This document shows positions 39,955-41,807 of a stretch of DNA of 43,538 bases, piece after piece (within the stretch, counting starts at the first letter, position 1; the number at the start of each line of letters is the position of its first letter). Source of the stretch: a virus (lineage: Duplodnaviria > Heunggongvirae > Uroviricota > Caudoviricetes). The translations under genes were made by a program, and so were the position numbers. The stretch lies in IMG/VR virus record IMGVR_UViG_2687453364_000004; one strand, written 5' to 3'. A model generated the notes under the pieces. That model ran no database searches, had not been told where the DNA came from, and saw only the letters and a list, made by a program, of their open reading frames with translations.

Positions 39955-40043
39955 GTTCGCATTCACCCTCAAGCGTATTAACCAACAGTTCAGGGATTAA
40001 TGAAAGATGGCAGTGAAGTGGTCAACAAAAACTGGCCACCGAG

Positions 40044-40862
40044 TTAGAGTTTTTTCCAGTATCGATTTTCCGATTCGTTTGGTGGTAACCCACCATTATA
40101 TTCGTGCGGTCTTAGTGCGCTGTAATATCCAACGATATAGTCCGTTATTGCGTGAGCTGCATCGCTGAAGCTTACATAGCCCGTCGCCGGCACCCATTCG
40201 TTCTTCAGACTCCTGAAGAAGCGCTCCATTGGGCTGTTATCCCAGCAGTTTCCACGCCGACTCATACTCTGCCTGATCCGGTATCTCCACAGTAACTGCC
40301 GGAACTGCCTGCTCGTATAATGACTGCCTTGATCGCTGTGGAACATCACCCCGACGGGCTTACCACGGGTTTCCCATGCCATTTCCAGTGCTTTCATGGT
40401 AAGCCTGCTGTCCGGCGAGAACGACATGGCCCAGCCCACTGGTTTTCTTGCGAACAGGTCGAGAACAACGGCGAGGTACGCCCAGCGCTTACCCGTCCAG
40501 ATATAGGTCACATCACCGCACCACACCTGATTTGGCTCGGTCACGGCGAACTGCCGTTCAAGGTAGTTAGGGATAGCAACATGTTCATGACCACCACGTT
40601 TATACCGGTAAGTCGGCTGCTGACAGCTGACCAGCCCCAGCTCTTTCATGAGTCTGCCAGCAAGCCAGCGCCCCATCTGGTAGCCTCTCTGGGTTGCCAT
40701 TGTGGCGATGCTTCTTGCTCCGGCAGAGCCGTGGCTGATGCCATGCAGTTCAAGTACCTGGCTGCGTAATACAGCCCGTCTGCCGTCTGGCTTTTCAGGA
40801 CGGTTTTTCCAGTATTTGTAGCTGCTGCGATGGACCCCGAACACATGGCAGAGAGTGGCCAC
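40044..40862 (-). CDS. insB: IS911 transposase OrfB (DDE catalytic domain), expressed as an OrfAB fusion by -1 frameshift
   Basis: 272-aa track ORF with the IS3-family integrase core; in the -1 frame relative to orfA. Confidence 0.85.
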
Positions 40863-40888
40863 AGGATAACGCGCCCTGAGTTTCCCGA

Positions 40889-41191
40889 TTATCGAGAACT
40901 GTTCAGGGAGTCTGACATCAAGAGCGCGGTAGCCTTTTTTAATATTTCATTTTCCATTTCAATACGTTGTAGCTTTTTCCTGAGCTCACGGATTTCAATT
41001 TGTTCCGGGGTAATAGGGGAGGCTTTTGGTGTTTTTCCCTGCCGCTCATCACGTAATTGTTTCACCCATCGCGTCATTGTGGAAAGGCCGACATCCATAG
41101 CGCTGGCTGCATCTGCCACGGTGTAATTCTGGTCAACGACCAGTTGAGCGGATTCGCGTTTAAACTCTGCGCTGAAATTTCTTTTTTTCAT
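40889..41191 (-). CDS. insA: IS911 transposase OrfA (HTH)
   Basis: [19 protein letters not shown]...; internal ATG of the track ORF; slippery A AAA AAG near its 3' end (minus strand, ~40934-40940) for the -1 frameshift into orfB. Confidence 0.85.
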
Positions 41192-41480
41192 TATGGCACC
41201 TGTGTTGTTCTGAGGTGAGCATATCACCTCTGTTCAGGTGGCCAAATTCAGTAAACCACTTCACAGACATCATTGATTCAGCATCAGAAATAGAAGAATT
41301 ACAGCGCAACACAGCAATAAAAATGCGCCGCCTGAACTACCTGGCTGTATCTGCCACTCATTGTTGTGAGTGTGGCGATCCGATAGATGAACGAAGACGC
41401 CTGGCCGTTCAGGGTTGTCGGACTTGCGCCAGTTGCCAGCAAGATCTGGAGCTTATCCGCAAACAAAGGGGGATTAAGTG

Positions 41481-41807
41481 ATGGCTAACCTGCAACTTGC
41501 TGTTAAAAGTGAATACTTCGATGCCATGATTCGCGGAGAGAAAACGGAAGAGTATCGCTTGTGTAATGACTACTGGAATAAGCGAATTATGTTCCGGGAA
41601 TATGACCGCCTGATTATCACAAAGGGATATCCGAAGCGCGACGATTCCAGTCGCAGAATTGATGTTCCGTATGACGGATATGAAGTGAAGACAATCACAC
41701 ATCCGCACTTTGGCGATAAACCGGTAAAGGTGTTCGCTATAAAGGTGAATATCAGCACTGAATATCAATCCGCACAACACAAGGTCAAGAATGTTCAGAG
41801 TGATTGA
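41481..41807 (+). CDS. ASCH-domain protein
   Basis: 108 aa; GxKxxExR motif (GEKTEEYR) typical of ASCH/PUA-like domains; start overlaps the traR-like stop (TGATG). Confidence 0.55.
   Translation: MANLQLAVKSEYFDAMIRGEKTEEYRLCNDYWNKRIMFREYDRLIITKGYPKRDDSSRRIDVPYDGYEVKTITHPHFGDKPVKVFAIKVNISTEYQSAQHKVKNVQSD

Follow-up and report, generated by a model that had tools for sequence, protein, structure and literature searches.

The 43,538-nucleotide virus record IMGVR_UViG_2687453364_000004 (the window, meaning this whole stretch of DNA) carries a complete insertion sequence (IS) of the IS911 group that interrupts codon 3 of a short zinc-finger gene of the TraR/DksA type. The interrupted gene corresponds to orf73 of phage lambda. 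These observations are best explained if an intact element of this group transposed recently, and in one strain only, into codon 3 of the lambda orf73 orthologue of a phage 21-like prophage in Escherichia coli uk_P46212, a reading to which a probability of about 0.9 is assigned.

The region 39700-41900 was read and dissected by script. At the left junction, ATGGCAG is followed by TGAAGTGGTCAAC, and after the 1,250 bp of the IS, AAACCACTTCA is followed by CAGACATC. Over a longer distance, the left flank TTAATGAAAGATGGCAG abuts the IS start TGAAGTGGTCAACAAAAACTGGCCACC, and the IS end GGTGGCCAAATTCAGTAAACCACTTCA abuts the right flank CAGACATCATTGAT. Nucleotide 7 of the gene is the last one before the IS, so that codon 3 is split (G|AC). 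Deletion of the IS and one CAG in silico restored a 222-nt open reading frame (ORF) encoding the 73-aa protein MADIIDSASEIEELQRNTAIKMRRLNYLAVSATHCCECGDPIDERRRLAVQGCRTCASCQQDLELIRKQRGIK. An earlier note on this sequence had given the coordinates 40007-41481, with the insertion two codons into the gene, and these coordinates were exact: position 40007 is the start of the ATG, and 41481 is the final base of the stop codon. The two copies of CAG occupy 40011-40013 and 41264-41266. The protein of about 73 aa with a CxxC...CxxC pattern that it expected after removal of the IS was also recovered, with a CxxC-17-CxxC arrangement. The CAG duplication is perfect, and the empty sites carry a single CAG. 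These results confirm the insertion of an IS with a 3-bp CAG duplication in a TraR/DksA-type gene.

The distribution of the empty and the occupied site was determined in 5,426 complete E. coli genomes. The reconstructed empty site (800 bp, 400 bp per side, with one CAG) was present in a single piece at 100% identity in all 25 of the top-listed E. coli genomes. It was found at 99% identity or more in 527 records, and 618 records covered at least 80% of the query. The carriers include many strains of the sequence type 131 (ST131) kind, e.g., JJ1887, O25b:H4. The complete occupied left junction (120 bp) was detected in only one of the genomes, E. coli uk_P46212 (NZ_CP013658.1), and the window is 100% identical to this record across its 43,538 bases. 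Strain uk_P46212 is an ST131 isolate with a PacBio assembly (PMC4807372). A 36-nt junction string had no match in the metagenome contig collection. The wide occurrence of the empty site, the occurrence of the occupied junction in one genome only, and the lack of a match in the metagenomes indicate that the insertion is real, recent and strain specific.

The element has TG...CA ends (TGAAGTGG...CCACTTCA), and its inverted repeats match at 25 of 36 positions. In the reconstruction, a -1 frameshift at A AAA AAG (IS position 324), itself predicted from the sequence, yields an uninterrupted OrfAB of 382 aa. Published IS911 has 36-bp inverted repeats, an OrfA of 100 aa and an OrfAB of 382 aa (PMC2909936). 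The copy in the window is considered intact because its 100-aa OrfA and uninterrupted 382-aa OrfAB agree with these figures. The "frameshifted" pseudogene flag set on the transposase by the Prokaryotic Genome Annotation Pipeline (PGAP) simply reflects the programmed frameshift. Perfect 3-bp duplications flank seven of eight other copies that are 100% identical to this element (GTT, TGT, AAG, ATG, TTT, GAT and ATG/GTT), indicating that a 3-bp duplication is its normal footprint. The sole exception (CGA/CGG) sits between two truncated genes.

The name IS911, which the earlier note had given to the element, stands only in part. The element is IS911-like along its full length, but identical copies are called ISEc52 in RefSeq and identity to the K-12 fragments ranges from 90.1 to 98.5%. 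The comparison used proxies, namely the fragments of IS911A and IS911B in K-12 and one copy labelled "IS911 family" by PGAP. Identity was 98.5% and 95.6% to parts 1 and 2 of IS911A, 90.1% and 97.5% to parts 1 and 2 of IS911B, and 94.7% to the PGAP copy. In ISfinder, an isoform is required to share at least 95% of nucleotides and at least 98% of amino acids with the type sequence. The left inverted repeat (IRL) of the window element, TGAAGTGGTTTACTG, agrees with the IS911A variant, as do N22, S30 and E69 of its OrfA.

That the element is IS911 proper and not ISEc52 is unlikely, though less so than any other alternative considered here. In its favor are the equal length of 1,250 bp, the sizes of OrfA and OrfAB, the frameshift motif, and the high identity to both IS911A fragments and to part 2 of IS911B. 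However, the 100%-identical RefSeq copies, in many E. coli genomes, all bear the name "IS3-like element ISEc52 family transposase," and PGAP maintains a separate "IS911 family" label. The identities to IS911B part 1 and to the PGAP "IS911 family" copy are also lower, the IRL differs from that of IS911B (TGAAGTGGCACACTG), and the OrfA of IS911B has lysine at all three of the positions named (N22K, S30K and E69K). In the literature, the two names were found together in resistance-plasmid surveys only. Judged by the PGAP labels and the proxy identities, ISEc52 is the more probable present-day name and is used below.

The restored protein was assigned to zf-dskA_traR in Pfam (PF01258; 36 bits against a cutoff of 24.9), in agreement with the TraR/DksA-like zinc-finger gene proposed earlier, and it scored slightly below the cutoff for TIGR02419 (55.1 against 59.7 bits). 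Residues 1 to 68 resemble the F-plasmid TraR chains 5W1S and 6N57 (PDB match, E value of 1e-4). A tblastn search of phage genomes showed 100% amino acid identity to the "zinc finger domain protein" of phage 21 and 90.4% identity, over 73 of 73 residues, to lambda positions 30395-30613. This lambda segment is flanked by orf61 and ea22 and corresponds to orf73, which carries no annotation there (cf. PMC4195576). The restored protein has six cysteines, four of which form a C4 zinc finger (C35-x2-C38, 17 residues, C56-x2-C59), and its N terminus, M-A-D3-I-I-D6-S-A8, contains the DxxDxA motif. By sequence and synteny, the interrupted gene is an orthologue of lambda orf73. The orthology with this experimentally characterized gene was absent from the earlier note.

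Lambda Orf73 binds the secondary channel of RNA polymerase in a TraR-like manner, with the DxxDxA motif at the tip of the N-terminal helix reaching the active-site region (PMC9239242). Host growth slows in its presence, and promoters for rRNA and ribosomal proteins are inhibited, whereas activation of the tested promoters is weak if it occurs at all (PMC9239242). After induction with mitomycin C, Orf73 increased the phage yield 3- to 4-fold, and the D3A and D6A substitutions in the motif eliminated this effect (PMC9239242). At 90% identity to lambda Orf73, the uninterrupted allele of the window would be expected to bind the secondary channel and to inhibit rRNA and ribosomal-protein promoters in the same way.

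The insertion separates the ATG and the preceding ribosome-binding site from D3-K73 by 1,250 bp of IS that is read antisense. The split allele is very probably null because the only starts left for the remnant are GTG and CTG codons without a well-spaced Shine-Dalgarno sequence, and because an extension of 12 to 17 residues would precede the tip motif. PGAP annotates an intact coding sequence of 83 aa with a CTG start (41230-41481, plus strand; WP_060667437.1, "TraR/DksA family transcriptional regulator"), the first 12 codons of which derive from the IS end. The sole GAGG near the chimeric starts directly abuts the GTG (0 nt) and is separated from the CTG by 14 nt, which is improper Shine-Dalgarno spacing. 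WP_060667437.1 is probably a misannotation of the IS-truncated gene, i.e., an annotation artefact. Upon prophage induction, RNA polymerase would then have no TraR-like Orf73 bound in its secondary channel, and the promoters for rRNA and ribosomal proteins would escape shutdown by it. If lambda is a guide, phage yield would drop a few-fold and growth would not be abolished.

An alternative is that the gene was remodelled rather than inactivated, with GTG 41215 or CTG 41230 initiating a functional TraR-like protein with an N-terminal extension of 12 to 17 residues. No stop codon interrupts the frame from 41176 to the remnant, D3-K73 is complete with the DxxDxA motif and the C4 finger, and PGAP treats the coding sequence as intact. 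In contrast, there is neither an ATG nor a correctly spaced Shine-Dalgarno sequence, no promoter is close by on the plus strand, and the extension would be expected to hinder placement of the DxxDxA motif, given its position at the helix tip (PMC9239242). A remodelled gene is thus improbable, and loss of orf73 function is the preferred explanation.

The earlier note had suggested that outward-reading IS ends could alter the expression of the downstream ASCH gene, xis and int. The order of the downstream genes, completed by DUF4222, holds on the plus strand (ASCH-named gene, DUF4222, xis, int). The ASCH domain is below the Pfam threshold: the product of 41481-41807 scored 14.3 bits against a cutoff of 21.2, over residues 6 to 28 only, and an NCBIfam search gave no match. 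The ASCH assignment was rejected on these grounds and is retained merely as the name given by PGAP. The effect proposed for the outward-reading ends was not borne out. The sole outward -35 box, TTGACC, is 6 bp from the tip of the 40014 end and faces leftwards, on the minus strand, to the orf61-like gene. Around the 41263 end, neither the standard scan nor a scan of 40900-41290 with relaxed criteria detected a sigma-70-like site on the plus strand. Activation of the ASCH-named gene, xis and int through an outward or hybrid promoter is slightly less probable still than a remodelled gene. Outward -35 boxes are possible in IS3-family ends, and the 40014 end has one, but it points away from these genes, even the best -10 candidates of its flank are poor matches, and no plus-strand site was detected at the right end.

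Insertion sequences are known for polarity on downstream genes. Transcription from the leftward early promoter would run through the IS in the antisense direction and leave about 1.1 kb of RNA untranslated, which would invite Rho-dependent polarity. Translation of the ASCH-like gene may be coupled to that of orf73 because their start and stop codons overlap (TGATG), and this coupling would be lost. The expression of the ASCH-like gene, DUF4222 and xis from the leftward early promoter is therefore more likely to be lowered than raised.

Upstream of the interrupted gene, the terminator scan detected the hairpin AGGGAGCTACAGGCTCCTT followed by TTTTTATTGTT at 39929-39947. It has a stem of 8 pairs and a loop of 3 nt, is followed by TTTTTTATT, and has a fold energy of -10.2 kcal/mol. 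The number of terminator-like sites in the region was 4, against 3.1 expected from shuffles. Since this count shows no excess, the case for a terminator depends on conservation: lambda has the identical hairpin and T-run, and one stem base differs in phage 21. Bloch et al. predicted this site as terminator t2 and reported less lambda mRNA beyond it in quantitative reverse transcription-PCR (PMC4195576). The rho-independent terminator that had been noted just upstream is thus supported as a conserved, previously predicted feature. An ORF of 31 aa runs across the hairpin at 39905-40000 (plus strand), and the equivalent ORF of 29 aa in phage 21 is annotated as "putative secreted protein." This interval also overlaps the p1 promoter predicted in lambda and phi24B, from which the window differs in both boxes, by TTATCA for TCATCA and by TTTTATTGT for TTTTATTAT.

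A coincidental CAG repeat, with the IS arriving by recombination or through an assembly error and not by transposition, is extremely improbable: recombination between copies does occur, as the one identical copy without a duplication illustrates, but the flanks of the window IS join perfectly into a sequence present at 100% identity in hundreds of single-CAG genomes, a 3-bp match is expected by chance in 1 of 64 cases, and the uk_P46212 assembly was built on PacBio long reads.

The order of genes in the exo-xis region is bet, exo, DUF1317 (orf60a), DUF1382 (orf63), orf61-like, hairpin, orf73, ASCH-like, DUF4222, xis and int, and the prophage adjoins icd in uk_P46212. Judged from its sequence, the element that hosts the IS is a lambdoid prophage of the phage 21 kind, inserted at icd of this ST131 strain. 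The prophage appears to be a mosaic because its immunity region (YdaT-like and Cro-like genes) looks Rac-like and its int-exo arm is phage 21-like. A gene for an S24-peptidase repressor and a gene for a KilR-like FtsZ inhibitor border 36631-37227. A cargo gene of 4.3 kb for an inverse autotransporter lies at about 28769-33034 (minus strand), between the replication and nin regions, and contains internal tandem repeats at 30663-31725 with a period of 357 bp and 98.6% self-matches. The prophage also carries the serum-survival lipoprotein gene iss, and its lesions comprise a frameshifted tail gene and two truncated tail-fiber fragments (iss and tail-lesion intervals, about 23278-23571; 13155-13732; 673-1650 and 2331-2694).

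Some observations weigh against a simple loss of function with consequences for the phage. The frame that is open from 41176 contains GTG and CTG codons and was annotated by PGAP as the 83-aa coding sequence, and residual expression of an N-terminally extended protein from this chimeric frame is possible. The prophage may already be defective owing to its tail lesions, in which case the insertion may have no phenotypic consequence. In addition, an N-type antiterminator gene was not seen at the canonical position. The stretch from the repressor gene (35876-36631) to the KilR-like gene (37227-37433) contains no N-like ORF, the plus strand of 36631-37227, where lambda and phage 21 carry N, has no ORF of at least 40 aa, and no Rfam family matched across the whole window. 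N-type or RNA-based antitermination in the left operon was rejected on this basis, and termination-resistant leftward transcription cannot be assumed.

Related prophages carry identical ISEc52 copies at five or more further sites of their exo-xis region, by one count at least six, in either orientation and with perfect 3-bp duplications (Table 1). An apparent orientation bias was rejected. The search joins same-strand pieces only, so that the shared orientation of the first five sites was an ascertainment artefact, and a search with the flipped IS added 9 records. In the unrelated strain 2015C-4136CT1 (NZ_CP027550.1), the orf73 orthologue carries a different 1,249-bp IS911 relative with 88.4% identity to the window IS and the ends TGTAGTGG...CCACTACA. 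It lies 2 bp downstream of the window site, is oriented the opposite way, is flanked by a GAC duplication, and is an independent event at nearly the same nucleotide. Targeting by inverted-repeat-like sequence was rejected as an explanation for the two events: in local alignment, the 60-bp target scored 14 against IRL and the right inverted repeat (IRR), a score reached by 43% of random window positions. By a back-of-envelope estimate, the chance that two of about ten known events in about 2.5 kb fall within 2 bp is about 0.1. This is a weak hint that the extreme 5' end of orf73 is a preferred landing site for IS911-group elements, a reading that is itself improbable. If such a hotspot existed, selection could favor the taming of lambdoid prophages through recurrent IS knockouts of orf73, the host-shutoff gene.

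All of the components described here are already known and annotated, and IS disruption of a dispensable prophage gene is commonplace. The event is an ordinary, recent, strain-specific knockout by a common mobile element, and its significance is small, that of a strain-specific IS polymorphism marked in one ST131 reference genome. The insertion most likely inactivates a nonessential phage gene for host takeover, and it exposes a RefSeq misannotation in which a truncated gene appears as an intact 83-aa regulator with a CTG start. It also illustrates how often IS911-group elements accumulate in the exo-xis region, a dispensable part of lambdoid prophages. Provided that the prophage can still be induced, this natural orf73-null allele, set against its many isogenic relatives with an empty site, would offer a ready-made comparison of Orf73 function in a clinical lineage.

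Table 1. Features of the interrupted region in the window and IS911-group insertions in the exo-xis region of related prophages
Feature	Position	Strand	Remarks
Predicted terminator t2 of lambda/phi24B	39929-39953	+	Intrinsic-terminator-like hairpin and T-run between orf61-like gene and orf73; scan hit
orf73 5' stub	40007-40013	+	ATG GCA G; runs into IS as 53-aa nonsense ORF (40007-40168)
Left CAG copy of target-site duplication	40011-40013	+	Sequence reading; empty site with single CAG
IS, IS3 family, IS911 group (RefSeq label ISEc52)	40014-41263	-	Complete, 1,250 bp
IS end IRR	40014		orfB side
IS end IRL	41263		orfA side
orfB frame of IS	40044-40940	-	DDE/rve integrase core; Pfam rve, E value of 1e-31
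orfA of IS	40889-41191	-	100 aa; Pfam HTH_Tnp_1 (PF01527), E value of 6e-14
Chimeric open frame, IS end into remnant	41215-41481	+	GTG 41215; CTG 41230; no ATG
Right CAG copy of target-site duplication	41264-41266	+	Sequence reading; empty site with single CAG
orf73 3' remnant	41264-41481	+	D3-K73 and stop, without own ATG or ribosome-binding site; keeps DxxDxA (D3, D6, A8), C35, C38, C56, C59
ASCH-domain gene (PGAP name)	41481-41807	+	ATG overlaps orf73 stop (TGATG)
Excisionase gene xis	42170-42406	+	Same leftward operon; Pfam Exc, 26.5 bits against cutoff of 23; PGAP excisionase
Integrase gene, phage 21 type, integrating at icd	42396-43538	+	Pfam Arm-DNA-bind_1 and Phage_integrase; window ends at stop
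ISEc52, ATCC 25922 lineage	orf63 3' end		ATG duplication
ISEc52, THO-006	After ea22-like gene		ATG duplication
Locus coordinates of the two preceding ISEc52 copies	L002 3002-4251; L015 2781-4030		ATG duplications
IS911 relative, 2015C-4136CT1	Equivalent to 40015/40016		orf73 orthologue; locus L016 1803-3051
ISEc52, isolate 30821_1#88	Equivalent to 41593		ASCH gene; GTT duplication; locus L017 1428-2677
ISEc52, 21AR0807	Equivalent to 41958		DUF4222; GAT duplication; locus L014 2493-3742
ISEc52, GN04171	Equivalent to 42073		DUF4222-xis spacer; TTT duplication; locus L013 2608-3857

The element shares with IS911/ISEc52 the length of 1,250 bp, the TG...CA ends, imperfect inverted repeats of about 36 bp, an OrfA with a helix-turn-helix motif, the DDE/rve core, the A AAA AAG motif and the 3-bp duplication. 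It differs from IS911 in its identity of 90 to 98.5% to the K-12 IS911A and IS911B fragments and in the RefSeq name ISEc52 of its identical copies. Like F-plasmid TraR and E. coli DksA, the protein encoded by the restored gene has a C4 zinc finger and an acidic N-terminal tip, but its sequence similarity to F-plasmid TraR is low (E value of 1e-4).

The likeness to lambda orf73 is closer and extends to the length of 73 aa, the 90.4% amino acid identity, the DxxDxA motif, the six cysteines with the CxxC-17-CxxC spacing, and the location in the leftward early operon, 3' of exo-orf60a-orf63-orf61 and the t2 hairpin in both phages. In contrast to lambda, the gene in the window is split by the IS and is followed by ASCH-like and DUF4222 genes, as in phage 21, where lambda has ea22 and ea8.5. 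Phage 21 (Jouyvirus) shares with the window the identical zinc-finger protein, integration of the icd type, and the gene order of orf61-like gene, small ORF, zinc-finger gene, unnamed 333-bp ORF (at the ASCH position), DUF4222, xis and int. The window differs from phage 21 in its immunity region, which lacks an N-like ORF and has KilR-like and YdaT-like genes, and in its cargo, the inverse autotransporter gene and iss.

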